A DNA stretch of 32,000 bases from Trichodesmium erythraeum IMS101. GTDB lineage: Bacteria; Cyanobacteriota; Cyanobacteriia; Cyanobacteriales; Microcoleaceae. Where the stretch lies: assembly GCF_000014265.1 (NCBI RefSeq), contig NC_008312.1, forward strand, positions 30,001 to 62,000, written 5' to 3'. The stretch's first letter is position 1, and the number at the start of each line of letters is the position of its first letter. A program made the translations under genes and the position numbers. This document shows, piece after piece, positions 7,019-31,289 of this stretch. Under the pieces are notes generated by a model. That model did not search any database, had not been told where the DNA came from, and saw only the letters and a list, made by a program, of their open reading frames with translations.

Positions 7019-8158
7019 ATGGTTCCAGTGATTAATAATTTCATTTCAAAAGCTAATAAATTAAAAAAAGAGGAGAAGCTAGATGAAGCGATCGCTCTTT
7101 ACAAACAAGCTATAGAATTAAATCCCGGTTTTCCTTGGTATTACTATGAACTAGGAGAAACTTTAACAGAAAAAGGAGATTTAGATGAAGCAATAGCTCA
7201 GTTTTTTCAAGCTACTAAAATTAATCCTAACTCTGCCTGGTTTTGTTATGAACTGGCAAAAGCTTTACAAAAAAAAGGTGAGTTAAATCAGGCAATTAAT
7301 TATTATAGACAAGCTATTGAAAGTAACCCAGACTTTTATGGATTTTACAATAGTCTAGGTTGTTGCTTTTTCCAGAATAAAAATTATCATCAAGCTATAA
7401 TTAATTTTTTAATCGCACTGGAATTAAACTCCAGTTCAGTAATTAGCTACGAATATTTATATCAAGTATACTTACAACTTGGTTTGACTAAAAAATGTAT
7501 TGATAATTTGTTTGGTAGATTTAAACAACCTAGTCAAAAACCTACTTTAACTATTCGCATAAAAGAAAAATCTGTCAATTCAAAACAGGAATTATCGAAA
7601 ACAAAAATATTTGGAATTGGTTTAGGAAAAACAGGTACCACAACTTTGGGAGCTTGCTTAAATAATCTTGGATATAAACACTATGGTTGGTATACTTTGA
7701 CTAATCACAAACTGCTTTACCAAATTAAATTAGATAATTTTGATGATGTTCATAGAGTAGTCAATCAATATGATTGTTTTGAAGATTATCCGTGGCCTTT
7801 GATTTACAAATGGCTCGATCAAAAATACCCTAATAGTAAATTTATATTAACCATAAGGAAATGTTCTCAAACTTGGTTTAAAAGTTGTTTAAATCATTAT
7901 TTTCGACTACAAGATAGAGCAGCTTATCTCTATGATTTAATCTATGGTTTAGGTCATCCACAGAATTGTTCAGATGAGTATATAAATTTTTACGAAAGTC
8001 ATAATCAACAAGTTATTGATTACTTTCAAAGTAAACCGGATAAATTACTGATAATTTGTTGGGAAAAAGGAGATAGTTGGGATAAATTATGTGGTTTTCT
8101 CGGAAAAACAGTTCCTGAAATTCTTTTGCCTCATTTGATGAAAAGTCAAACTAATTAA
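7019..8158 (+). CDS. TPR-repeat protein with C-terminal P-loop-type sulfotransferase domain
   Basis: Four to five TPR units (KLDEAIALYKQAIELNP..., DLDEAIAQFFQATKINP..., ELNQAINYYRQAIESNP...) are followed by GIGLGKTGTTTLGACLNNLGY and DYPWP motifs of the Sulfotransfer_4-like family. The ORF is open from 6830 (TTG), but that N-terminus belongs to the upstream pseudogene, so the start is placed at ATG 7019. Confidence 0.7.
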   Translation: MVPVINNFISKANKLKKEEKLDEAIALYKQAIELNPGFPWYYYELGETLTEKGDLDEAIAQFFQATKINPNSAWFCYELAKALQKKGELNQAINYYRQAIESNPDFYGFYNSLGCCFFQNKNYHQAIINFLIALELNSSSVISYEYLYQVYLQLGLTKKCIDNLFGRFKQPSQKPTLTIRIKEKSVNSKQELSKTKIFGIGLGKTGTTTLGACLNNLGYKHYGWYTLTNHKLLYQIKLDNFDDVHRVVNQYDCFEDYPWPLIYKWLDQKYPNSKFILTIRKCSQTWFKSCLNHYFRLQDRAAYLYDLIYGLGHPQNCSDEYINFYESHNQQVIDYFQSKPDKLLIICWEKGDSWDKLCGFLGKTVPEILLPHLMKSQTN

Positions 8159-8240
8159 TCAAGGATATATTTTTAATAAAATTGCTACAGGAGATTTAAT
8201 GATGCAGGGAGATTAACTCAAATATGAGGGAAAGTTAGAT
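8039..8240. repeat. Left copy of a ~200 bp duplication of the sulfotransferase-3'end / next-gene-5'end junction
   Basis: 8039-8240 aligns base for base (roughly 85-90% by eye) with 9768-9966. The 3' half (8166-8240) is a decayed copy of the start of the 9907 gene. Confidence 0.8.
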
Positions 8241-8393
8241 TCGCGTTTCGCTGCGCGACATGAAATGCGGGGCATGGTATTAGCTATATCCCTCTCTATA
8301 TAGAACCACTAAACTTATTTTTTACATTGATTTTCCTTTCTGCAGCATTCCTAATCCCTGAGAAACTATACTATTTTAGTTGAATAAAAAGTC

Positions 8394-8555
8394 ATGCGTA
8401 TAGGCGAACTTAGCCTTATAGTCTTTATAATATCACAATTTTTGTGGGAATGCAGCGGAAAATCTTTTGGCGCGCGATTTTTTGGAGCTTCAGAGAATGA
8501 ATATATTGATGGCTTTCCACTGAGGAGGGAGGGATGGAAATATTTTAGTGGGTAA
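8394..8555 (+). CDS. Candidate small ORF of repeat unit 1 (53 aa, MRIGELSLIVFIISQFLWECSGKSFGARFF + tail)
   Basis: ATG at unit offset 16. The first 30 codons are conserved in all five units. Too short for the ORF track. No clear SD. Confidence 0.25.
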   Translation: MRIGELSLIVFIISQFLWECSGKSFGARFFGASENEYIDGFPLRREGWKYFSG

Positions 8556-8672
8556 AATCCAGCATATTTATGGGTGCTTCACAACATGAAAATATTTCTG
8601 GTGTTGCTCCTTGAGAAAATTCTTCAATGTTCTGTTATCTCTGAGAGTGAAAATTTAGTTGAATAAAAAGTC

Positions 8673-8804
8673 ATGCGTATAGGCAAACTTACCCTTATAG
8701 TCTTTATAATATCACAATTTTTGTGGGAATGCAGCGGAAAATCCTTCGGCGCGCGATTTTTTTTGGAGCTTCAGAGAATGAAAACGTTGATGACTTTCCA
8801 CTGA
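8673..8804 (+). CDS. Candidate small ORF of repeat unit 2 (43 aa)
   Basis: Same N-terminal 30 codons. The T8 tract shifts the tail to LELQRMKTLMTFH*. Confidence 0.25.
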   Translation: MRIGKLTLIVFIISQFLWECSGKSFGARFFLELQRMKTLMTFH

Positions 8805-8960
8805 GGAGGGATGGAAATATTTTAGTGGGTAAAATCCAGCATATTGGGTGCTTCACAACATGAAAATATTTATGCTGTTGCTCCTTGAGAAAATTCTTCA
8901 ATGTTCTGTTATCTCTGAGTGTGAAAATTTAAGTGTGAAAAGTTAGTTGAATAAAAAGTC

Positions 8961-9068
8961 ATGCGTATAGGCAAACTTACCCTTATAGTCTTTATAATAT
9001 CACAATTTTTGTGGGAATGCAGCGGAAAATCCTTCGGCGCGCGATTTTTTTGGAGCTTCAGAGAATGA
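8961..9068 (+). CDS. Candidate small ORF of repeat unit 3 (35 aa)
   Basis: Same N-terminal 30 codons. The T7 tract gives the tail WSFRE*. Confidence 0.25.
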   Translation: MRIGKLTLIVFIISQFLWECSGKSFGARFFWSFRE

Positions 9069-9233
9069 AAACGTTGATGACTTTCCACTGAGGAGGGATG
9101 GAAATATTTTAGTGGGTAAAATCCAGCATATTGGGTGCTTCACAACATGAAAATATTTATGCTGTTGCTCCTTGAGAAAATTCTTCAATGTTCTGTTATC
9201 TCTGAGAGTGAAAATTTAGTTGAATAAAAAGTC

Positions 9234-9365
9234 ATGCGTATAGGCGAACAACCCCTTATAGTTTTTATAATATCACAATTTTTGTGGGAATGCAGCGGAA
9301 AATCTTTTGGCGCGCGATTTTTTTTGGAGCTTCAGAGAATGAAAATGTTGATGACTTTCCACTGA
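9234..9365 (+). CDS. Candidate small ORF of repeat unit 4 (43 aa)
   Basis: Same N-terminal 30 codons (variant EQPL at codons 5-8). T8 tract, tail LELQRMKMLMTFH*. Confidence 0.25.
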   Translation: MRIGEQPLIVFIISQFLWECSGKSFGARFFLELQRMKMLMTFH

Positions 9366-9524
9366 GGAGGGATGGAAATATTTTAGTGGGTAAAATCCAG
9401 CATATTCATGGGTGCTTCACAACATGAAAATATTTCTGGTGTTGCTCCTTGAGAAAATTCTTCAATGTTCTGTTATCTCTGAGTGTGAAAATTTAAGTGT
9501 GAAAATTTAGTTGAATAAAAAGTC

Positions 9525-9632
9525 ATGCGTATAGGCGAACTTACCATTATAGTCTTTATAATATCACAATTTTTGTGGGAATGCAGCGGAAAATCTTTTG
9601 GGGCGCGATTTTTTTGGAGCTTCAGAGAATGA
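9525..9632 (+). CDS. Candidate small ORF of repeat unit 5 (35 aa)
   Basis: Same N-terminal 30 codons. T7 tract, tail WSFRE*. Confidence 0.25.
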   Translation: MRIGELTIIVFIISQFLWECSGKSFGARFFWSFRE

Positions 9633-9767
9633 AAACGTTGATGACTTTCCACTGAGGAGGGAGGGATGGAAATATTTTAGTGGGTAAAATCCAGTATATT
9701 TATGGGTGCTTCACAACATGAAAATATTTCTGGTGTTACTCCTCGAGAAAATTCTTTAATGTTCAAT

Positions 9768-9966
9768 GATAAATTACTGATAAGTTGAGAGGAAAGAGAT
9801 TGTTGGGATAAATTATGTAGTTTTCTCGGAAAAACAGTTCCTGAAATTCCTTTGCCTCATCTGATGAAAAGTCAAACTAATTAATCAAGGAAATATTTTT
9901 AATAAAATGACTACAGGAAATTTAATCATACAAGGAAATAAACTGAAACGTGAGGGAAAGTTAGAT
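9768..9966. repeat. Right copy of the ~200 bp junction duplication
   Basis: 9768-9883 is a decayed copy of the last ~40 codons of the 7019-8158 gene (DKLLIS*EERDCWDKLCSFLGKTVPEIPLPHLMKSQTN*). It is followed by the authentic start of the 9907 gene. Confidence 0.8.
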
Positions 9967-11900
9967 GAAGCGATCGCTCTCTATACACAAGCTATAAATT
10001 TAAAGCCAGACTTTGCTTTTACTTATTATGAATTAGGGGATGCTCTGGAAAAACAAGGTAATTTTGCTCAAGCCATTATTGAATATGAAAAAGCTATTGA
10101 ACTGAATCCTAATATAGATTTTTTTCATCAGAGTCTGGAAACAATTAAAAGTAGGAAACTTGAGCAAAATATTGATTTGACTTCCAATCAAATTAACTCA
10201 GATTTTTTGGTTGTGGGAATTTCCATGATTAAAAACGAGGAAGACGTTTTAGAAACTTTTATTCGTCATAATTTGAACTATCTTGACTTTTTAGTATTAG
10301 CCGATAATGGTTCTACAGATAATAGTAGAAAAATCATTAACAAACTTATTCAAGAAGGTTTCAACCTTTGTGTAATTGATGACTATAAAATGGCTCATAA
10401 TCAAAATAATAAAATGACAAATTTCTACAGAAGAGTAGCTACATCATTATTTCCAGAATTTATTGTTCCAATGATGCAGATGAATTAATTCAGTCACCAT
10501 CAAAAGAATCATTTATTAATTCACTTTCAGTCATTCCTAAAAATGGGATAGGTATTTATCCTTGGAAAACCTATATTCCTGAACCTACTAATACAAGTCA
10601 TTTACTATCAAATTTTAAACACAGAAGAACAAAAGAAAATCCACAGTATTTTAAAATTATCCTCAAAACTAGCCGTAGTATTAATTATCAACTTAAAATC
10701 GATCAAGGTAGTCATGGAGTAACAAGCAAAAATGGCGATATACCCAGTGTTGAATTATCAGATATTTGTCTAGCTCACTTTCCTATCAGAAGTGTTAATC
10801 AACTTTTCAAAAAAATTTTACTAGGATGGTTAGGTGTGCTAGAAAGATTTAAAAGTAGAGATACTAAAGGAGAATGTTATCAATGGTATGACCTATATAT
10901 AAAAATTATGCGAGGAGAAAAGTTTTCTAACTCAGACCTAACATATATAGCTCTTAACTACGCACAAAAAGTTGAGGTAAAAGAAGATTGTTTAAACCAT
11001 GTTGAATTAGAACCTCCTACCATCAAATCATCGCAACTTTCTTATTCCGATTTAATAGCTAAAAATGATTACCGGACCAATGTCATTACAACTATTATTA
11101 AATCTTGGGAAAATCAAATTATAAAAATCCCTCCTTTAATTTCCAGAGAAGACTTAATTCCCTTCAGCGAATCACCTACTTCCCCATCAACAGATAATCA
11201 TCAACATGGCGTCTTTGAGCCAAATTTTCACTTAGAAAAATTATTTATTGATATTCCACCATTCGAGTATATTTATCAGAGATTTTTGCCAGAAAATATT
11301 CTTGATATTGGCTGTGGTGTAGGTCAATATCTGAAAATTTTCAATAAACGAGGAGTTACAGAAATTATCGGTGTAGATGGTTTTATCCCACAACAAAGTT
11401 TCTTAAATTAAAATCAATATATTTGCCATGATTTAACTCACCCATTAAATTTACAACGCAAATTTGATTTAGTTATGTGTTTAGAAGTAGCTGAACATTT
11501 ACCACCAGGCAAAGAACTTAACTTGATAGAAATATTAAATAATCATGCCTCCAATATTTTGATATTTTCAGCAGCAGAAATAGGTCAACCAGGAAACGGA
11601 CATATTAATTGTCAACCCTTTGAATATTGGGTTGACTTATTAAAACAAAACTGGTCGCCAATGTTAACTGAGACATTATTTTTCCGATGTATCTCTAGTT
11701 TTTCTTCGTTCAGGAGAAACCCTATCGTACTCCAGAAAAAAACAGAATTAACCTCAGAAAATAGTTCTTTAAAATCTTGGGATAAATTAATTGTCATATC
11801 TCAAATACCCTACAAATGGTACGGTCAAAAATCTCAAATTATTTCCGAGATTCTAGAAATAGATATACCTGATGATATATATTCTTATTCTACTAAATAG
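9907..11900 (+). pseudogene. TPR / family-2 glycosyltransferase / SAM-methyltransferase multidomain gene, disrupted by one frameshift and one in-frame stop
   Basis: ORFs 9907-10488, 10836-11411 (open back to ~10467 in frame 3) and 11475-11900 are collinear pieces. The frame 1 to 3 switch at ~10468-10472 falls just before the DxD-like motif (IVP-NDADELI). TAA at 11409-11411 splits a methyltransferase fold (ILDIGCGVGQYL ... FDLVMCLEVAEHLP) in the same frame. Confidence 0.75.
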
Positions 11901-14405
11901 CAACGGAAATACTAATTATCAATCATTTAAATATTGGGTTTTCTTGTGAAAACAAGACTATTTTCCAATGTTGACTGAGACATAATTTTTTCCATATATC
12001 TCTAGTTTTTTTTAGTATAAACCAGAGCATACTTCAGGAAAAAAAATAGCTTAACTTCAGAAAATAGTTATTTAAAATCTTCTAAAAAAAATTGATTTTT
12101 ATATCTCAAATACATCACAAAGAGCATACTTCAGAAAAAAATAGCTTAACTTCAGAAAATAGTTATTTAAAATCTTCTAAAGAAATTGATTTTTATATCT
12201 CAAATACATCACAAATTGTTTGCTCAACAATCTCAAACTATCTCCGATATTATAGAAAAATAAATGCCCGATAATGTATATCTTTCTTATACTTAATAGC
12301 AGCAGAAAGAAGTCAATCAAGAAATAGATATATTAATTGTCAATTCTTTGAATATTAGGATAAATTATTACAATCAGACTTGTTGCTCATATTAACTTAG
12401 AAATAATTTTTTCTATGTATCTCTAGTTTTTTTAGGTTGAGGAGAAACTAGAGCATAATTCAGCAAAAATCAGTCAACTTCAGAGAATATTTATTGAAAA
12501 TATTGAGAAAAATTTAATTTTTAGATCTCAAATTATCTCTGATGTTCTAGAAAAAGGAATACCTGATAATGTATATCTTTCTTATGTTTAAGAGCATCAG
12601 AAAGAGGTCAATTAGCAAATGGATATATTAATTTTAAATTCTGTGAATATTGGGTTAACTTACTACAATAAAACTAGTTTTCAATATTTAATTATAGATA
12701 ATTTTCCGATGTATCTCTAGTTTCTTTGTTCAGGATAAACCAGAGTATAATTCAGAAAAAAAACTAGTTAACTTCAGAAAAAAGTTATTTAAAATTTGTA
12801 AAAAAATTGATTTTTATATCTCAAATATCTCACAAATTATCTAGTGAAAAATATTAAATTATCTCTGATGTATTTTGTTTTTTATCAGTCCAGTAAAAAT
12901 CCTATTGTACTTCATAAAAAAAACTCGAGTTAACTTCATAAGATAGTTATTTAAAATCTTGGAAAAAATTGATTTTCATATCTCAAATACATCACAAATT
13001 GTTTGCTAAAAAATCTCAAATTATAGTCGTTTTAATCAAGATTGAGACAAAAATTGAGGATAAGAAAATCAAGTCAACTAGAAACTACTTTTAACTATGC
13101 CTTAGAGTTTAGACTTAAGACAAAAAGTAATAAATTTTGTAGAAAATAATGGTATGTTTACCGAAGCAGCTCATATATTTGGGATAGAAATAGCTTCGAT
13201 ATCTAGATAGTTATCTCGCCCAAAATTGGAAGCAACTAAGGCAAAATATTGCCTAATAAAATTAGATTTGAAAGAATTAAAAAAAGATATAAAACCCAAT
13301 AAATAATCGCTCCTTAGCAGACACAGATAAAAAAAATGGAGTTAATCCTAAAGCTATATTTTACGCTTTAAAAAGAATAAAATTTCCTTAAAAAAAACAA
13401 CTTCGTTATAGAAAAATAAATAGAGAAGAACGAATAAAATATTATCAGAAACTACGAAATTTCATCAAAAAATTTGGAAGTAAAAGCCTTGTATTTATTG
13501 ATTAATCAGGATTTTAAGATAATCAAGACTGTATTTATGCCTGGTTAAAAAAAGGGAAAAAAGTTGATGGTGAGCCAGAAGGAAAACGAGGAAAAAGAGA
13601 AAAGTTAGTAGCTGGGAGAAGAAAAAAGGAAAAAGATTTAATGGCACCAATTATATTTAAAGGAATCCTAAATGCCGTGAGATATGAACAATGGTTAAAT
13701 TAAGATTTATTACCATCATTAAAAATTTCCAGTGTACTAATTATGGATAATTAACCAATTCATAGAAAAAAGGTTATTAAACAATTAGTAGAAGCAAGGG
13801 TCATCAATTACTATTTTTGCCAAAATGCTCTCCTGATTTAAATGACTAAGAACATGATTTTAGTGCATTAAAAAGAGCTAGAATATATTCACCTATAAAC
13901 ACATCTCTCGATGAAATTATTCGTAATTATTGTGCCAAATAGCGTCTCATTCTTATTTCAAATGACTATATCTCCGATATTCTAGAAAAATAAATACTCA
14001 ATAATGCATATCTTTCTTATACTTAACAGCAGCAAAAAAAAGTCAATAAGGAAATGGATATATTAATTGTCAATTCTTTTAATATCGAGCTAACTTATTA
14101 CAACAAGACTGGTCACCCATGTTGAATTAGACATAATTTTCCCCATTTTTTTTTGAGTATAAACCATAGCATAATTCAGAAAAAAAGCAGTCAACTTCAG
14201 AAAATAATTATTGAAAATATTGAGAAAAAATTGATTTTTATATCTCAAATATTTTGCAAATAGTCTGGTAAAAAATCTCAAATTATCTCTGATGTATTTC
14301 GATTTTTTATCAGTTCAGGAAAAACCCTATTGTACTTTATCAAAAACTCAAGTCAACTTCAGAAAATAATTATTTAAAATATTAAGAAAAATTGATTCCT
14401 ATAAG
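11901..14405 (+). repeat. Degenerate head-to-tail copies (~300-330 bp each) of the last ~333 bp (11568-11900) of the preceding pseudogene
   Basis: Unit junctions lie at 11900/11901, 12299/12300 and 12594/12595. The landmark ATCTCTAG recurs at 11691, 11998, 12419 and 12713. An internal 97-bp duplication lies at 12024-12120 / 12121-12214. The array is interrupted by an IS at 13024-13968 and resumes at 13971 to ~14405. Confidence 0.8.
13024..13968 (+). mobile_element. Degenerate IS630-family element (element B, copy 1) inserted in the repeat array
   Basis: Termini TAGTCGTTTT...AAATGACTA are flanked by a TA/TA duplication (13022-13023, 13969-13970). The flanks rejoin to the repeat consensus CTCAAATTATCTCCGATATT. 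The transposase reading frame (MPYSLDLRQKVINFVENNG...YSPDLN...) has many stops. Confidence 0.8.
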
Positions 14406-14479: not shown

Positions 14480-14800
14480 ATTATCCAGATTCGGTTCATG
14501 GAGACCCAATTTACAGAGTCGCGCGCGAAAATAGAAAATTTACTTCATCTGAGAGCTATTTTATGGGAGCTATCTGCCGGTTTGTTGAGCACCCAAAAAT
14601 ATTGATAAAAAACATATGAAACAAGCTAAATTAGATAAAAGATTACGTAATCATATTGAGGGTCAACTTGGGCAATACGAAAAAAATATTTAGTCTAGTC
14701 AAAGTAATAGCAAAACTTTCTGAAACTTCCACAATTATGTACGCAATTACTTTTTTACTAATCAACCTTTCTACCTTCTTGCAAGAAACTTTTTTTCTTT
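14480..14800 (+). pseudogene. C-terminal fragment of an IS5/IS1182-like (DDE_Tnp_1) transposase
   Basis: Across shifting frames: GDPIYR..RENRKF, then ...HIEGQLGQ..., then SLVKVIAKLSETSTIMYAITFLLINLSTFLQ. This resembles the conserved IS5-group C-terminus (IEGxFG...AKL..TSE....F.v.NL). No intact ORF remains. Confidence 0.4.
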
Positions 14801-22989: not shown

Positions 22990-23040
22990 TTTGTTTAGAC
23001 ATATTCTTTTTTTCTTACTAGATAATATATATCAAAAGTA

Positions 23041-24074
23041 TAGTTTTTTAAATTAAGATTAAGACAAAAATTGAGTTGAATAAAATCAAGTCAACTAGCA
23101 ACTATTTTTAACTATGCCTTACAGTTTATACTTCAAAAAAAAGTAATAACTTTTGTAGAAGATGCTGGTATTATTACCAAATAAGCTGATATATTTGGGA
23201 TAGGAGGAGCTTCGATATATAGATGGTTATCTCACCCAAAATTGGAAGCAAGTAATGTGAAATTTTGTCCAATAAAATTAGGTTAGAAAGAATTAGAAAA
23301 GGTAAAATTTATTCAAATAAAATTAGATTGGAAAGAACTAGAAAAGGTAAAATTTATTCAAATAAAATTAGATTGTAAAGAACTAGAAAAAGATATAAAA
23401 CCAAATCAATAATTGCTCATTAGCAAACAGAGCAAAAAAAAATGGAGTTAATTCTATAGCTATATTTTATGCTTTGAAAACAATTAAGTTTCATTGAAAA
23501 AACAACTTTGTTATAGAGAAAGAAATAGAGAATAAAGAATAAAATATGATCATAAACTACGAAATATCATCAAAAAAAATTGGAAGTAAACGCTAATTAT
23601 TTATTTATGAATCAAGATTTGAAGATAATTAAGACTGTATTTATGCCTGGTCAAAAAAAGGGAAAAAAGTTGATGGTGAGCCAGAAGTAAAACGAGGAAA
23701 AAGATAAAATTTAGTAGCTGGGAGAAGAAAAAAGGAAAAAGATTTAATGGCACCAATTATATTTAAAGGAACCCTAAATGCCGTGGGATATGAACAATGG
23801 TTAAATGAAGATGTATTGCCATCATTAAAAATTTCCAGTGTACTAATTATGGAGAATTAACCAATTCATATAAAAAAGGTTATTAGACAATTAGTAGAAG
23901 CAAGGGTCATCAATTACTATTTTTGCCAAAATGCTCTCCTGATTTAAATGGCATAGAACATGATTTTAGTGCATTAAAAAGAGCTAGAATATATTCACTT
24001 ATCAACACATCTATTGATGAAATTATTCGTAATTACTGTGCCAAATAGTGTCTCATTCTTATTTAAAATGACTA
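23041..24074 (+). mobile_element. Degenerate IS630-family element B, copy 2
   Basis: Collinear with 13024-13968 and 28572-30669. Flanked by TA (23039-23040, 24075-24076). Carries an internal ~45-bp tandem triplication at ~23271-23400. The reading frame is broken. Confidence 0.8.
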
Positions 24075-24555
24075 TAATATCTATAAAGTATATCTATCCG
24101 AAAAAAACTAATTTAAGTAATTGACAATTCCCGAGTTGACAGTACGCTATATATAGCGTACCTGCGTAATTTCTGTGAATGTGACTACAGGGACTATCAT
24201 ATTTAATAGGCAAAGGAAAACAAACTGCAAGCCTTTAATCTGAACTAAGGTGACGATAGTTTTAATAGAATTAGTATTCACTAGATTTGGAGTAACAACT
24301 TTTGCCTCTTTGGCTAAAGAACTATAGCCAAAGCTGACATTTAAGGCCATGTACCGAGAGTAATTAACCCTACCTCAAATTACCTGACCTAGAAAGTTAT
24401 TCCCTAACCAAGAGGAGAGGAATTTAACCTCCAAGGAATTGGGAGTTATCATCTCATATCACCTCTAGTAATTATTAGAGATATCGGCTATGTTATACTA
24501 ATTTCATAAACTTAAGCTACACTTTTAGAAGTAACCTATTATAGAAAATGTCCCC

Positions 24556-25059
24556 ATGTCAGGAGTAGTAAAAATTGAGATAAATGAATCGGTAGAAACT
24601 CTCAAAAAACTTTTAAAAAGTGCGAGTACAGCTCAAGAAAAGGAAAGACTTCAAACTATTTACTGGTTGAAAACTCAAACAGTAGAAACAGTAAAAGAAA
24701 TTGCGATAATGTTAGGACGCAATCGAGTCACAGTACAAAAATGGTTAGGGAAATATCGTACAGGTGGACTGAATCTTTTACTAGAACCAAAGAAAAATCT
24801 AGGAGGGAGGCCAAGTTCAATTCCACCAAATGTAATCGAGAAATTAGAAGCAGAATTGCAAAACCCGGAAGGTTTCCAAAGCTATGGTGAAATTCAACAG
24901 TGGTTAACGACTTGTTTTGACATCGAGCTGTCTTATCGAACAGTTCATCAATTAGTCAGATATAAATTAAAAAGTAAATTAAAAGTTCCACGTCCAAATC
25001 ACATAAAACAAAATAAAGAAGCTCAAGAAAACTTTAAAAAAAACTCTCATCTCAACTAG
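24556..25059 (+). CDS. IS630-family transposase OrfA (HTH DNA-binding part)
   Basis: 167-aa ORF with HTH-like segments (VKEIAIMLGRNRVTVQKWL, SYRTVHQLVRY). It ends just after an A8 run. Confidence 0.85.
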   Translation: MSGVVKIEINESVETLKKLLKSASTAQEKERLQTIYWLKTQTVETVKEIAIMLGRNRVTVQKWLGKYRTGGLNLLLEPKKNLGGRPSSIPPNVIEKLEAELQNPEGFQSYGEIQQWLTTCFDIELSYRTVHQLVRYKLKSKLKVPRPNHIKQNKEAQENFKKNSHLN

Positions 25060-25523
25060 AAGAGAAAATTAAGTTAATTAATAAATATTCGGAAAATCAA
25101 CTGCCAATTCGCTATTGGTGTCAAGACGAGACTAGAATTGGATTAAAAACTATAACAGGTAAAGTCATTACTGCTTGCGGTGTTAAGCCCATTGGTTTAT
25201 ATCAATGGCTATTTAAATATCTATGGCTTTATGGTTTAGTAGAACCAAAAACAGGAGATTCCTTTTTTTATGAATTTAGTCATCTAGATACTCCTTGCTT
25301 TGAAAGATTTTTAGAGCTTTTTTCTCAAACATATCCTGAAGAGATTCATATTATTCAACTAGATAACGGGCGAGGGCATCTAGGGAATGATTTATCTATC
25401 CCTGATCACATCATTTTATTATTTCAACCTCCTTATTGTCCCGAAGTTAATCCCATTGAAAGACTGTGGAAAGAGGTGAAAAAATTCTTGAAAAATCGAG
25501 TTTTCGATTCCTTAGATTTCTGA
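25038..25523 (+). CDS. IS630-family transposase OrfB (DDE catalytic part), expressed as an OrfAB fusion by -1 slippage on A8
   Basis: Frame 3 from the A8 run (25036-25043) reads KKLSSQLEEKIKLINKYSENQLPIRYWCQDETRIG...IIQLDNGRGH...CPEVNPIERLWKEVK. It has no own start codon. It ends at TGA 25521-25523, and the same frame then stays open to TAG 25626-25628. Confidence 0.7.
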   Translation, partial: KKLSSQLEEKIKLINKYSENQLPIRYWCQDETRIGLKTITGKVITACGVKPIGLYQWLFKYLWLYGLVEPKTGDSFFYEFSHLDTPCFERFLELFSQTYPEEIHIIQLDNGRGHLGNDLSIPDHIILLFQPPYCPEVNPIERLWKEVKKFLKNRVFDSLDF

Positions 25524-25815
25524 CGCAGAATCCTGAGAAATATATTAACTGGATTTAGTCAAAAAGATATTGCTTCTTGTACAGGATATGATTTTATTCT
25601 TGAAGCATTATGTGTAGTCGGACTTTAGGAAATTGGTATTACTTATGGGGTTCTTTAGCCCAAGAAGTCGCACTCAGCAAATCCTAAATAAAGTGATAAA
25701 GTAGGTGAAAGTCTAGTAAAGTTTCTATATTTTTATAGACTATGGACTGTGGCAATGAGAAAGCTATCATTCCATAAAAAAATAAACGTTTTACGAAAAA
25801 CTGCAAATTATTCTG

Positions 25816-27300: not shown

Positions 27301-29364
27301 GTTCAATAATATAATAGCAGTACCTTGATATTTTTGAAGTGCCAAAATGCTATTAATTGTTCTTTTGGAGTAAGGGAAATATAAAGCTCTTGCTAAGAAA
27401 AGCTTTAATAAAAGATAGATTACTATCCACAGTTTATCAAAAGTAAAGCCTATATTTTATAAAGCTTTGATAATATTTTTATTTATGTTTTACTCACCTC
27501 AGTTTTGCCTTGCTCTAAAACGTATTGTGTTTTAGGGAGTAGAAAATAGTAGTTGCACCACATTATTTTCTGGTACAAACTGACTTTTCCTAGGTCATAC
27601 TGCACAAATAAGATATTTTTCTGTCACAAAAATGTTTCGTATAAAAGATTAAAAAAATAATGTTACAAATAATCGGGGGTAAATTTATCGGAGAATTTAA
27701 TCAGATTTCCCTTTCTATAAAATAAGCTATAGCAATCCGTGGGTAGGTTGCGACAAAATTCTATACTGAAAAAGTTTTGGGAAATTGGATATTTTACCAT
27801 CTGCAAAAAACTTTAAATAACTTAACTACTTTAAAATAACTGCAAAGATAATAAAAATATCTAATAAATTTTTTGGCTTGTAACCAAATATCTTCAACAG
27901 GATTTTGCTCCGGAGCATTTGGAGCAAATGAGCGTACAGTTTATCAAGCATTCTTCTTCCGATAAGTCTTGATTAATTGTCATTAAATATTCTCTATATG
28001 CTTGAAAGTTATAATAAGTTACTCCATCCCAAAATATTGCCAATTTATTACCTGGTCTTTGCTTCTGCAAATATTTAATAAATTCCATAGTTTTTAGTAT
28101 TTCCACTTCTTTAATTCTTGCACAATAAATTATTTAGTTTGATAGTCTAAAACTCGATAATAAAGTCTGTTTTTCTTTTTCATTTTTCATCGTAATTTAT
28201 ATTCTTTCATATGTTTTTACCTAAGTATAACCTAATATATCTCCCCATAGAAGATGACATTCATAAATCATAAATACTGTAAGCTTTTCAGCTTCTATTG
28301 CTGGTTACTATTTATTTAGCTAACAATTCCTCTATTTTTTTCTTTCAGCTTGTACTAATTTATCATTTGTAGCAGTTTTTGAATTTTTTTTCAGCTTATT
28401 TATGCTTCTTTTAAGAATTTAAAATAACTTTAGATATACTCAAAAAAAATCTCATATTGATTCTGTAAATAGCTTTTTTGACCTGATAAAATTAGGTAAT
28501 ATTGTTCCCTAAAATACTGATTTTTTTTTCTTCCTTTGCGACAGCCTTTAAGTCACCTTTTTCCCAATATATAGTCGTTTTAATTAAGATTTAAATAAAA
28601 ATTGAGTATAATAAAATCAAGTCAAATATAAACTATTTTGAACTATGCCTTACAGTTTATAATTCAGACAAAAAGTAATAAGTTTTGTAGAAAATGGCGG
28701 TACGATTACCAAAGCAGCTCATACATTTGGGATAGCAAGATCTTCGATATATAGATGGTTATCTCGCCCAAAATTGTCAGCAACTAAGGTAAAAAGTCGT
28801 CAAAGAAAATTAGATTGGAAAGCATTAGAAAAAGATGTAAAACCAAATCCAGAGTCGCTCATTGTCAGACAGAGCTAAAAAATTTGGAGTTAATCAATCA
28901 GCTATATTTTATGCTTTAAAAATAATGGATTTTCCTTGAAAAAAAACAACTTCGTTATAGAGAAAAAAATAGAGAAGAAAGGATAAAATATTATCAGCTT
29001 TCCCTTGAAATTTTATCAAAAAATTTGGAAGTAAAAGCCTTGTATTTATTGATAAATCAGAATTTGAAGATAATCAAGACTGTATTTATGCCTGGTCAAA
29101 AAAAAGGGAAAAAAGTTTATGGTGAGCAAGAGGGAAAACGAGGTAAAAGAGGAAATTTAGTAGCCGGGAGAAGAAAAAAGGAAAAAGATTTAATAGCACC
29201 AATTATATTTAAAGGAACCCTAAATGCTGTGGGATTTGAACAATGGTTATACCAATTTCCTAAAGTCCGACTACACATAATGCTTCAAGAATAAAATCAT
29301 ATCCTGTACAAGAAGCAATATCTTTTTGACTAAATCCAGTTAATATATTTCTCAGGATTCTGCG

Positions 29365-29850
29365 TCAGAAATCTAAGGAATCGAAAACTCGATTTTTCAA
29401 GAATTTTTTCACCTCTTTCCACAGTCTTTCAATGGGATTAACTTCGGGACAATAAGGAGGTTGAAATAATAAAATGATGTGATCAGGGATAGATAAATCA
29501 TTCCCTAGATGCCCTCGCCCGTTATCTAGTTGAATAATATGAATCTCTTCAGGATATGTTTGAGAAAAAAGCTCTAAAAATCTTTCAAAGCAAGGAGTAT
29601 CTAGATGACTAAATTCATAAAAAAAGGAATCTCCTGTTTTTGGTTCTACTAAACCATAAAGCCATAGATATTTAAATAGCCATTGATATAAACCAATGGG
29701 CTTAACACCGCAAGCAGTAATGACTTTACCTGTTATAGTTTTTAATCCAATTCTAGTCTCGTCTTGACACCAATAGCGAATTGGCAGTTGATTTTCCGAA
29801 TATTTATTAATTAACTTAATTTTCTCTTCTAGTTGAGATGAGAGTTTTTT
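29365..29850 (-). CDS. IS630-family transposase OrfB (copy 2), frameshift-dependent
   Basis: Mirror of 25038-25523. Same A8 run and same in-frame TGA (complement at 29365-29367). Confidence 0.7.
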   Translation of the reverse strand, partial: KKLSSQLEEKIKLINKYSENQLPIRYWCQDETRIGLKTITGKVITACGVKPIGLYQWLFKYLWLYGLVEPKTGDSFFYEFSHLDTPCFERFLELFSQTYPEEIHIIQLDNGRGHLGNDLSIPDHIILLFQPPYCPEVNPIERLWKEVKKFLKNRVFDSLDF

Positions 29851-30332
29851 TTAAAGTTTTCTTGAGCTTCTTTATTTTGTTTTATGTGATTTGGACGTGG
29901 AACTTTTAATTTACTTTTTAATTTATATCTGACTAATTGATGAACTGTTCGATAAGACAGCTCGATGTCAAAACAAGTCGTTAACCACTGTTGAATTTCA
30001 CCATAGCTTTGGAAACCTTCCGGGTTTTGCAATTCTGCTTCTAATTTCTCGATTACATTTGGTGGAATTGAACTTGGCCTCCCTCCTAGATTTTTCTTTG
30101 GTTCTAGTAAAAGATTCAGTCCACCTGTACGATATTTCCCTAACCATTTTTGTACTGTGACTCGATTGCGTCCTAACATTATCGCAATTTCTTTTACTGT
30201 TTCTACTGTTTGAGTTTTCAACCAGTAAATAGTTTGAAGTCTTTCCTTTTCTTGAGCTGTACTCGCACTTTTTAAAAGTTTTTTGAGAGTTTCTACCGAT
30301 TCATTTATCTCAATTTTTACTACTCCTGACAT
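29829..30332 (-). CDS. IS630-family transposase OrfA (copy 2)
   Basis: Protein identical to that of 24556-25059. Confidence 0.85.
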   Translation of the reverse strand: MSGVVKIEINESVETLKKLLKSASTAQEKERLQTIYWLKTQTVETVKEIAIMLGRNRVTVQKWLGKYRTGGLNLLLEPKKNLGGRPSSIPPNVIEKLEAELQNPEGFQSYGEIQQWLTTCFDIELSYRTVHQLVRYKLKSKLKVPRPNHIKQNKEAQENFKKNSHLN

Positions 30333-31289
30333 GGGGACATTTTCTATAATAGGTTACTTCTAAAAGTGTAGCTTAAGTTTATGAAATTAGTATTAGATAA
30401 ACATTTATGACCATCATTAAAAATTCCCAGTGTACTGCTGCACGGATAATTCACCATTAATTACGAAAAAAAGTTATTATAGAATTAGTAGAAGCAGGGG
30501 GTCACCAATTACTATTTTTGCCAAAATACTCTCCTGATTTAAATGACTAAGAACATGATTTTAGTGCATTAAAAAGAGCTAGAATGTATTCACCTATCAA
30601 TACATCTCTTGATAAAATTATTCGTAATTATTGCGCCAGATAGTGTCTCATTCTTATTTAAAAGAACTATATCTGAAGCATTAAACTTTCTAAACCATGA
30701 AATAATACTTAGTTTTTCCATTCGCTTTCTAAACTGCTGAGTTACATTTAATAATTATTTGTTTTCATGGCATAATTTTTTATGAAAAGATCATTTTTAC
30801 TGCCAAGGCTATTTTAATTTCAAGGCTATTTTAATTTCTTTGAGCTCTTTTTTTTGATTAATAAAATCATCTAGTTCATCTATAATTTTCCTTTGTTTTC
30901 TTTTTCTTATACCTGTTATTTTTACTATTATATCTGTTGCAACCAATATGGGATTGCTATATTTTTATGGGACCAAAATGTCTTGCATAAAAGGTTAAAA
31001 AATAATGTTACAAATAATCAGGGGGATAAATCAAGAGGACTTAATCAGATTTCCCTTTCACTAAAAAAGGATATTCAAACCTTTATGATGATTTTTAATG
31101 CTAGGGGAGAAAAAATAATGCTTAACCTGGATGAAACTTCAATTATTAAGAATTAACACTCTACTAATAGCTTTTTTTAATAATTAGTATCCCAAAAGAA
31201 TGTTGATTTTATAAATATTGTACGGGTTACCCTTACTGAAGAAAATGTAACAAATATTGGCGTTGCTGAATTATGGAATGAATCTGATT

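Follow-up and report, generated by a model that had tools for sequence, protein, structure and literature searches.

What are the five closely similar units of about 285 bp that lie head to tail between the genes Tery_0022 and Tery_0023 of the filamentous cyanobacterium Trichodesmium erythraeum IMS101? The Trichodesmium genome is non-coding over approximately 40% of its length, and repeat-derived non-coding RNAs (ncRNAs) of unknown function contribute much of the primary transcriptome (PMC4143802). We have analysed this array within a 32,000-nt stretch of contig NC_008312.1 (positions 30,001 to 62,000, forward strand; assembly GCF_000014265.1), which we call the window and in which positions are counted unless another contig is named. 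An original prediction proposed that each unit holds a gene for a small hydrophobic peptide, and it named an array of ncRNAs, each with its own promoter, as the alternative. It is this alternative that the evidence favours: at a rough probability of 0.5, the array may be read as a clade-specific row of promoter-bearing non-coding units that would give rise to ncRNA.

How is the array built? Tandem Repeats Finder reports a single tandem array at 8375-9764 (period 287, 4.9 copies, 91% matches, score 2187), and the five aligned units have a mean column identity of 92%; the five-unit array of the original prediction is confirmed by both. Every unit is composed of a head of ~80 nt followed by a module of ~165 nt.

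8375-9767, plus strand: head-to-tail array of five units (Tandem Repeats Finder, unit alignment and repeat search; the unit limits below are from the latter two)
8375-8653, plus strand: unit 1, 279 bp
8654-8941, plus strand: unit 2, 288 bp
8942-9214, plus strand: unit 3, 273 bp
9215-9505, plus strand: unit 4, 291 bp
9506-9767, plus strand: unit 5, 262 bp

The 20- and 31-mers drawn from the units occur five times in the window, compared with 0.00 expected, and nucleotide profile searches found no further family copies in the window outside 8375-9767. The layout is not the repeat-spacer layout of a CRISPR, as the units are homologous over their full length and have no unique spacers.

What, then, has been conserved within a unit? 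For the head, we surveyed 31 heads (26 of them distinct; the anchor is present in 30) from at least 10 genomes or metagenome contigs of Trichodesmium, Okeania, Dapis and two metagenome-assembled genomes (MAGs). Two elements stand out.

8380-8396, plus strand: box 1 of unit 1, TTGAATAAAAAGTCATG, 17 nt; box 1 starts at 8659, 8947, 9220 and 9511 in units 2-5
8426-8435, either strand: promoter-like core of unit 1; at 8705, 8993, 9266 and 9557 in units 2-5

Box 1 is present as the exact 17-mer in 24 of the 31 heads and with 1-3 base differences in the remainder. On the plus strand, the core of unit 1 reads TATAAT (8426-8431) and then ATCACAA, and the TATAAT that had been predicted at all five starts is confirmed; on the minus strand, the same core reads as an extended −10 element, TGATATTAT (8435-8427). 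Across the heads with the anchor, A2 and T6 of the −10 element and the ATCA after them are invariant (30 of 30), and the consensus after the −10 element is ATCA(C/A/G)AA. Each of the 26 distinct heads has box 1 and ATCA set 58-59 nt apart, even though the intervening sequence is strongly diverged. The neutral yardstick is topA, whose 4-fold degenerate sites have an identity of 0.68-0.70 in the comparison of Trichodesmium with Okeania; set against this value, identity is 0.61-0.85 for whole heads and 0.72-0.78 for whole modules, and constraint therefore lies in islands and not across the whole unit.

Relative to a start within ATCACAA, box 1 would occupy approximately −58 to −42, which is the placement of an UP element or an activator site. 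We propose that each head may be a compact promoter without a −35 element, in which box 1 would assist the −10 element from upstream, either as A/T-rich sequence or as the site of an activator, and that the head would drive transcription into its module to produce an ncRNA. Box 1 gave no matches in viral contigs. A hairpin between box 1 and the −10 element has a z near 0 in the window units and is significant only in the sister subfamily of Okeania KiyG1 and a tar-biofilm MAG, and its register shifts among lineages. Okeania KiyG1 has three more heads of this sister subfamily (L014 1320, 1768 and 2249), with a strong GGGG…CCCC hairpin that is stabler on the minus strand.

The module is the larger and more varied part of the unit, and it carries a T-tract and two copies of a short motif.

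8458-8623, 8737-8897, 9025-9184, 9298-9461 and 9589-9755, plus strand: modules of units 1-5 (nhmmer)
8478-8483, 8757-8764, 9045-9051, 9318-9325 and 9609-9615, plus strand: T-tracts of 6, 8, 7, 8 and 7 nt
8484-8501, plus strand: motif A of unit 1, GGAGCTTCAGAGAATGAA; at 8765, 9052, 9326 and 9616 in units 2-5
8572-8593, plus strand: motif B of unit 1, GGGTGCTTCACAACATGAAAAT; at 8846, 9133, 9410 and 9704 in units 2-5

The module of unit 1 is homologous to a 167-bp repeat of Okeania KiyG1 and to a 159-bp repeat of Dapis (nhmmer, E = 1.5e-47), and the module can be aligned across Trichodesmium, the Microcoleaceae MAG L007, KiyG1 and Dapis. It opens with GGAAAATCYTTYGG, followed by the T-tract and two copies of the motif GGAGCTTCAGAGAATGAAAA; the complete order is GGAAAATCYTTYGR, a short variable GC-rich stretch, the T-tract, motif A, TTTCCAC…GATGGAAA, motif B and TTGCTCC…GAGAAAATTC. 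The internal sub-repeat of each unit thus consists of motif A and, ~85-95 nt away, motif B (GGTGCTTCACAACATGAAAAT), which is a diverged internal copy of the same ~20-nt motif. The motif GGAGCTTCAGAGAATGAAAA resembles a ribosome-binding site (Shine-Dalgarno) with a 9-nt spacer and AUG AAA. In viral contigs, three matches to this core motif were found, each of which is the ordinary ribosome-binding site and ATG of a Rossmann-fold gene. The frames that start within the motifs, MKTLMTFH in motif A and MKIFLVLLLEK… in motif B, were considered as genes and rejected; by eye, they are 3-46 codons long and are shifted by 1-nt indels in KiyG1 and the MAG. We speculate that the core motif could be a mimic of a ribosome-binding site within an RNA, and we speculate also that it could descend from a duplicated gene start, because other IMS101 arrays contain gene ends.

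What of the T-tract, which the original prediction took for a phase-variation-like switch of a peptide C-terminus? The five lengths are as predicted, and the tract is indeed variable: it measures 6-10 nt in 16 Trichodesmium copies (9 and 10 nt in the same array on Tara Oceans contigs, and TTTTTCTT in another copy), 5-7 nt in KiyG1 and 4-9 nt in Dapis (the last counted by eye). The switch, however, did not stand, since the frame that it would alter is not a conserved gene. Shorter runs of the unit, such as A5 in box 1 and T5 behind ATCACAA, are constant, and with short runs constant and the long tract variable, no phase-variation function is needed. With ~45 nt separating it from the −10 element upstream, the tract also lies outside any promoter spacer. 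The observed length variation is what a slippage-prone homopolymer would show at a site that tolerates 5-10 nt, and the predicted pairing of the tract with an A/G-rich run would tolerate such changes.

The islands of head and module could also be read at the level of DNA, i.e. as protein binding sites (box 1 as an operator of the form TTGA-N8-TCA, or TTTCCAC as a DnaA-box-like site) in an array that titrates a protein or organises the locus. The invariant 17-mer of box 1, with its half-site-like TTGA…TCA and its strict spacing to the −10 element, would suit such a role. The cyanobacterial DnaA box is TTTTCCACA, and the (C/T)TTTCCAC that each module carries matches it at 7-8 of 9 positions. TTTCCAC varies, however (TTTTTCAC, TTTTCTAC), and is missing from the single-copy Okeania elements; the DnaA-box reading was rejected on the ground that the element is not conserved across the family. 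Additionally, a site spacing of 160-290 bp is unlike known origin or datA clusters, and we know of no regulator with a TTGA-N8-TCA site. We regard a DNA-level role as improbable.

Does the unit encode a peptide? The original prediction held that each unit specifies a hydrophobic peptide with a conserved core of ~30 aa, its tail diversified by T-tract slippage, and possibly acting as a type I toxin with an antisense RNA. The frames in question are the following, and their ATG is formed by the last three bases of box 1.

8394-8555, plus strand: frame of unit 1, 53 aa
8673-8804, plus strand: frame of unit 2, 43 aa
8961-9068, plus strand: frame of unit 3, 35 aa
9234-9365, plus strand: frame of unit 4, 43 aa
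9525-9632, plus strand: frame of unit 5, 35 aa

These frames are reproduced, with the predicted sequences, by the listing of open reading frames (ORFs), and the alignment confirms the four differences within codons 9-30 as synonymous changes at third positions (alignment columns 49, 91, 94 and 97). Of 16 Trichodesmium copies, 15 have the frame open, as do the two MAG copies at the same locus, and the minus-strand extended −10 element inside the ORF would yield an RNA antisense to the ORF start. Outside this circle, however, the frame does not hold. Over the 31 heads, it runs for 0, 5, 10, 17, 19, 23, 28, 31 or 35-73 codons from the ATG of box 1; that ATG is replaced by ATA in 3 of them, and where a head leads a long array, in Okeania KiyG1 and in Dapis, the frame ends after 5 codons or lacks its ATG. 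Stops or a missing ATG within the first 30 codons are found in most other lineages, and broken frames of this kind are what the original prediction had itself named as refuting the peptide. Only 0-23 codons are left in Okeania, Dapis, the tar-biofilm MAG and the third MAG copy.

The substitutions do not bear out purifying selection on a peptide either. Differences fall on codon positions 1, 2 and 3 as 2/7/5 between Trichodesmium and the MAG and as 10/10/10 against Okeania, i.e. without codon periodicity, and among changed codons between lineages 1-2 are synonymous and 10-16 non-synonymous, the other two frames behaving alike. More Trichodesmium copies add ATG->ATA, G22R and R28Q. The four synonymous sites that had suggested selection are a small-sample effect. 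The core motif teaches the same lesson: in predicted ORFs, GCTTCA-N4-ATGA is read ten times as GAS(E/Q)(N/D)EN and ten times as (E/V)L(H/Q)(K/R)MK, so that the apparent peptide motif GASENEN is the DNA motif GGAGCTTCAGAGAATGAAAA, which another frame gives equally often as ELHKMK. Motif A is likewise read as GASENE or ELQRMK, and one ORF of Okeania KiyG1 reads the core motif in frames 0, 2, 2, 0 and 0 successively. Conservation is therefore at the nucleotide level.

The predicted character of the peptide as hydrophobic fares no better. No stretch free of charged or strongly polar residues exceeds 9 aa, and the Kyte-Doolittle mean over 19 aa is 1.45, compared with ~2.4-2.5 for IbsC and TisB; a membrane helix would call for a longer and more strongly hydrophobic stretch. 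No Shine-Dalgarno site precedes the ATG of the frame, the family ORFs match 0 Pfam families at E ≤ 1, and the small ORFs of the array are absent from the IMS101 protein collection and uncalled by gene callers in IMS101. We judge the frame to be an incidental open one and consider the peptide largely refuted, with only a very slight chance of being real.

How could such a frame have looked convincing? When the 53-aa frame was used as a phmmer query and the search was continued with a profile, 35 small predicted proteins of 41-157 aa were retrieved, in clusters of 1-5 and without a Pfam domain, from Okeania (five genomes), Hydrocoleum CS-953, Trichodesmium sp. MO_231.B1, Dapis BLCC M229 and metagenomes. 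Most family ORFs are 36-71% identical to the window frame in amino acids, which is what ~75-80% nucleotide identity would be expected to give without selection on a peptide. The conserved peptide F-x-GASENENVGDFPLRRDGWKD that emerges from protein searches was ruled out by the variable frame lengths, the two-frame motif and the substitutions. A 73-aa ORF of Okeania SIO2D1 and a 50-aa called gene of SIO3B3 were also set aside; they are intact there only and broken in SIO2B3. The family is thus a source of at least 35 spurious "hypothetical protein" database entries, and it serves as a warning that a peptide-level search alone leads to false confirmation of a conserved small protein.

Which strand would be transcribed, if the units do give rise to ncRNA? 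Our estimate is that the plus strand is the probable one, that the minus strand is distinctly less probable and that transcription of both is the least probable of the three. The plus strand is favoured because of the head-then-modules polarity in KiyG1 and Dapis, because box 1, at its fixed distance from the −10 element, has the position of an UP element or activator, and because the module has the better consensus fold on this strand: −11.7 kcal/mol, compared with −5.6 ± 2.5 for column shuffles (2 of 200 as low) and with −6.6 kcal/mol for the minus strand. In the plus-strand fold, 98.5% of cells pair, many as G·U, and the predicted helices join U-tract·GGAGC with GCUCC·GAGAAAA and UUUCCAC with GAUGGAAA. 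One compensatory pair, C-G to U-A, falls in the first of these helices. Whole-unit consensus folds show no covariation on either strand.

How widely is the family distributed, and what does its distribution say about its nature? As far as sequence matches tell, the repeat family is confined to the filamentous cyanobacteria Trichodesmium, Okeania and Dapis, with one family ORF from a Hydrocoleum record. Trichodesmium sp. MAG_R01 has four units (one with ATG->ATA, one with G22R and one with TTTTTCTT), an ALOHA_ZT_67 contig ends inside the array, and the MAG L007 has two units in the same junction duplication, ~80% identical to the window units. Single diverged copies stand before cbiX in Okeania SIO3B3 and SIO2B3 (nucleotide profile, E = 3e-21 and 7e-26), and two inverted units were found in the tar-biofilm MAG by nucleotide profile. 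The composition differs among genera: head and module are repeated together in Trichodesmium, a single head is followed by six 167-bp modules in Okeania KiyG1, and in Dapis four 159-bp modules come after the last of three heads. Amplification of head and module in Trichodesmium would raise dosage by multiplying promoters (5 in IMS101, 4 in MAG_R01 and 2 in the related MAG); Okeania KiyG1 and Dapis would have amplified the module only, behind a single head.

An exact scan of unit 20-mers in a species-representative genome collection gave 0 matches, and Tery_0022 was not found there either; the IMS101 region seems absent or masked in this collection, which is thus uninformative on IMS101. A single metagenome match to an exact unit 20-mer was dismissed as chance. 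We found no published description of the repeat family.

The main rival explanation is that of a satellite-like or selfish repeat without a cell function, spread by unequal crossing-over or a mobilising activity that the conserved islands serve, with any transcription incidental. Much of the distribution would suit it: several copies per genome lie at unrelated intergenic sites, the copy number is 5, 4, 2 or 1 among close relatives, the bulk of the element diverges at a neutral rate, copies have themselves been struck by small insertions, and the window is rich in other repeats. A third copy in L007, for example, is split by a 128-nt insertion that resembles a miniature inverted-repeat transposable element (MITE). 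Against a selfish repeat, four lineages share a placement near the gene cluster of Tery_0022-0023 and topA, no transposase is linked to the element in Trichodesmium, and no terminal inverted repeats were found at the array ends; the flanking duplication, at ~200 bp, is unlike a short target-site duplication, so that the array does not have the marks of a MITE or an insertion sequence. Additionally, the fixed 58-59-nt spacing suggests promoter architecture over a recombination site. We rate a functionless repeat as possible but unlikely, and prefer the promoter-bearing ncRNA units. The variety of flanking genes among genomes (Tery_0023, uvrA, dnaB and cbiX) also speaks for such units, which are bound to no single neighbour.

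That preference must be weighed against a number of observations that count against it. Outside the conserved islands, divergence of the element is approximately neutral (0.67-0.78, compared with 0.68-0.70 at topA 4-fold sites). The minus-strand extended −10 element, TGnTAnnnT, is present in 30 of 30 anchored heads (the invariant TATCA is the reverse complement of TGnTA), compared with 25 of 30 for the plus-strand TAnnnT, in which T1 is the variable base, so that either strand may be the one used. As to covariation, a single compensatory event was seen, in a structure that had been derived from these very sequences. No intrinsic terminator is predicted in the array, and a hairpin before the T-tract is no stabler than shuffles (z ~+1, seven lineages). 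Rfam gave 0 matches at the gathering score, and at E ≤ 10 only chance matches to eukaryotic families. Finally, the array is absent from the 20 most abundant IMS101 transcripts listed in a published survey (PMC4143802).

How did the array come to lie where it does? It sits within a ~200-bp duplication of the junction between Tery_0022 and Tery_0023, and together with a 134-nt leader it is bracketed by two copies of that junction, which are 84-89% identical.

8039-8240, plus strand: left junction copy, in which the 3' end of Tery_0022 is intact and the start of Tery_0023 is dead (ATG->TTG, then stops)
8241-8374, plus strand: leader before unit 1, 134 nt, ending in CTGAGAAACTATACTATTTTAG; also kept in Trichodesmium MAG_R01 and the Microcoleaceae MAG L007
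9768-9966, plus strand: right junction copy, with a dead 3' end of Tery_0022 (stop at codon 7) and the live start of Tery_0023 (ATG at 9907)

The head of Okeania KiyG1 is preceded by a pre-box sequence that resembles the IMS101 leader. In Okeania SIO3B3 and SIO2B3, the homologues of Tery_0022 and Tery_0023 abut, with gaps of 115 and 45 nt and no element between them, which suggests that the array is an insertion at this junction. The observed duplication suggests that it would have arrived through a rearrangement that duplicated ~200 bp. Runs of the heptamer CTGATAA border arrays in Okeania (L014 5462-5521) and Dapis (L015 2851-2871 and 4481-4500), and the right array junction in the window, at 9767/9768, falls between …TTCAAT and GATAAATTACTGATAAG, inside the duplicated end of Tery_0022; CTGATAA-type sequence may be the microhomology that the rearrangement used.

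The genes themselves raise a last alternative, namely that the array is a cis-regulatory leader of Tery_0023, e.g. an attenuator that uses the T-tract and the motifs resembling Shine-Dalgarno and AUG. The array is co-oriented with Tery_0023 and ends 140 nt before its ATG, and the core motif resembles a translation-initiation region. The downstream gene, however, varies by genus (uvrA, or cbiX with its own cobalamin riboswitch) or lies on the opposite strand (dnaB), and the Okeania homologues of Tery_0022 and Tery_0023 manage without the element. Tery_0023, Tery_0024 and Tery_0025 are one 664-aa gene in other Trichodesmium and in Okeania and three ORFs in IMS101, where they are probably a pseudogene. 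A leader function for Tery_0023 thus seems highly unlikely to us. Tery_0022, the upstream flank of the array, encodes tetratricopeptide repeats (TPR) plus a sulfotransferase; the intact homologue of 9907-11900 is an ORF of 664 aa with TPR, glycosyltransferase and methyltransferase; the topoisomerase I of the window is ABG49550.1; and in the literature we found no mention of Tery_0022-0024.

The window and the related loci offer further observations on repeats. A second, degenerate repeat field at 11500-14400 is made of copies of the 3' end of Tery_0025 (ORF 11475-11900) and contains a 95-bp x 2 tandem (12024-12215) and 8 copies of a 69-nt piece, in agreement with the published remark on duplicated gene ends in IMS101 arrays. 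A perfect inverted repeat of 1154 nt (24489-25642 and 29246-30399), with one 167-aa ORF per arm, is probably an insertion sequence present twice. The gene-poor half of the window is taken up by several families of dispersed repeats with 62-93% identity (13014-13973, 23030-24079 and 28562-30674; also 1438-2540 against 27743-30961). In L007, the insert at 14569-14696 (minus strand) has 16-nt terminal inverted repeats and a 10-bp target duplication, GGCGTGTTAG, and in L009 (~1000-1120) an element copy is broken by a ~120-nt insert flanked by AATAATTT. In L010, a cobalamin riboswitch (2654-2819; Rfam RF00174, 32.2 bits) lies between the single-copy element and cbiX. In Okeania KiyG1, an unrelated array of 150 bp x 12.5 with a similar CAGAGATGAAAAT motif follows uvrA (L014 8531-10408).

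With which known systems can the array be compared? The nearest comes from the same strain. In a 7-repeat array at genome 103-110 kb, adjoining Tery_0080, the repeats take in a portion of a neighbouring gene, and the ~260-nt ncRNAs that the array produces account for 44.7% of primary reads (Pfreundt et al. 2014, PMC4143802). Like it, the present array is head-to-tail and intergenic, with parts of neighbouring genes duplicated in or around it. Each of the seven repeats has its own transcription start and a non-coding product, for which the heads described here would be the counterpart; transcription of the 7-repeat array was shown by differential RNA sequencing (dRNA-seq) and northern blots, whereas here we infer it. 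The units differ in length (736-973 bp, compared with ~285 bp here). According to the authors, the 7-repeat unit has no similarity elsewhere in the genome or in GenBank (PMC4143802). The present family, in contrast, is shared with Okeania and Dapis and is a second repeat family of Trichodesmium, and with its promoter-like head, its module and its copy-number differences between close relatives, it provides a comparative handle on the function of repeats.

Other comparisons reach further afield. The E. coli LDR (ldr/rdl) and SIB (ibs/sib) loci, to which the original prediction had pointed, are likewise tandem direct repeats of ~300 bp with a tiny open frame and a possible antisense promoter inside it, the counterpart of which would be the minus-strand TGnTAnnnT of every anchored head. 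The resemblance to type I toxin-antitoxin repeats did not survive, as the IMS101 frame is not conserved, shows no coding constraint, is not membrane-helix-like and has no family match. CsrB and RsmZ, by comparison, are multi-motif sponge RNAs, and here, too, many copies of a short conserved motif, in this case one like a ribosome-binding site, are strung along a single locus. Unlike those of CsrB and RsmZ, the motifs are ~90 nt apart and are not packed in hairpin loops; there is no homology, and a binding partner is hypothetical. By this analogy, it is conceivable, if rather unlikely, that the family represents a so far undescribed class of modular regulatory RNA, in which mimics of a ribosome-binding site and AUG would act as a sponge or decoy for ribosomes or an abundant RNA-binding protein. 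If so, such a sponge RNA would be a promoter of box 1 and −10 element driving repeated modules with two mimics each, its dosage set by copy number.

A further parallel is NsiR1, in which direct repeats upstream of hetF each carry a promoter and yield a small RNA of ~60 nt. The NsiR1 tandem array of heterocystous cyanobacteria is known from the literature (PMC4030482; PMC9045159), and, like it, the IMS101 array consists of cyanobacterial tandem direct repeats with a promoter-like element per unit and a copy number that varies among strains. The two have no sequence or Rfam similarity, the IMS101 units are ~5x longer and modular (head and module), and NsiR1 units close with a terminator hairpin, of which none is predicted in the IMS101 array. 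In other words, sequence, unit size and terminator are not what is shared; what the present family would have in common with the known arrays is the kind of system, i.e. a row of promoter-bearing tandem non-coding units.

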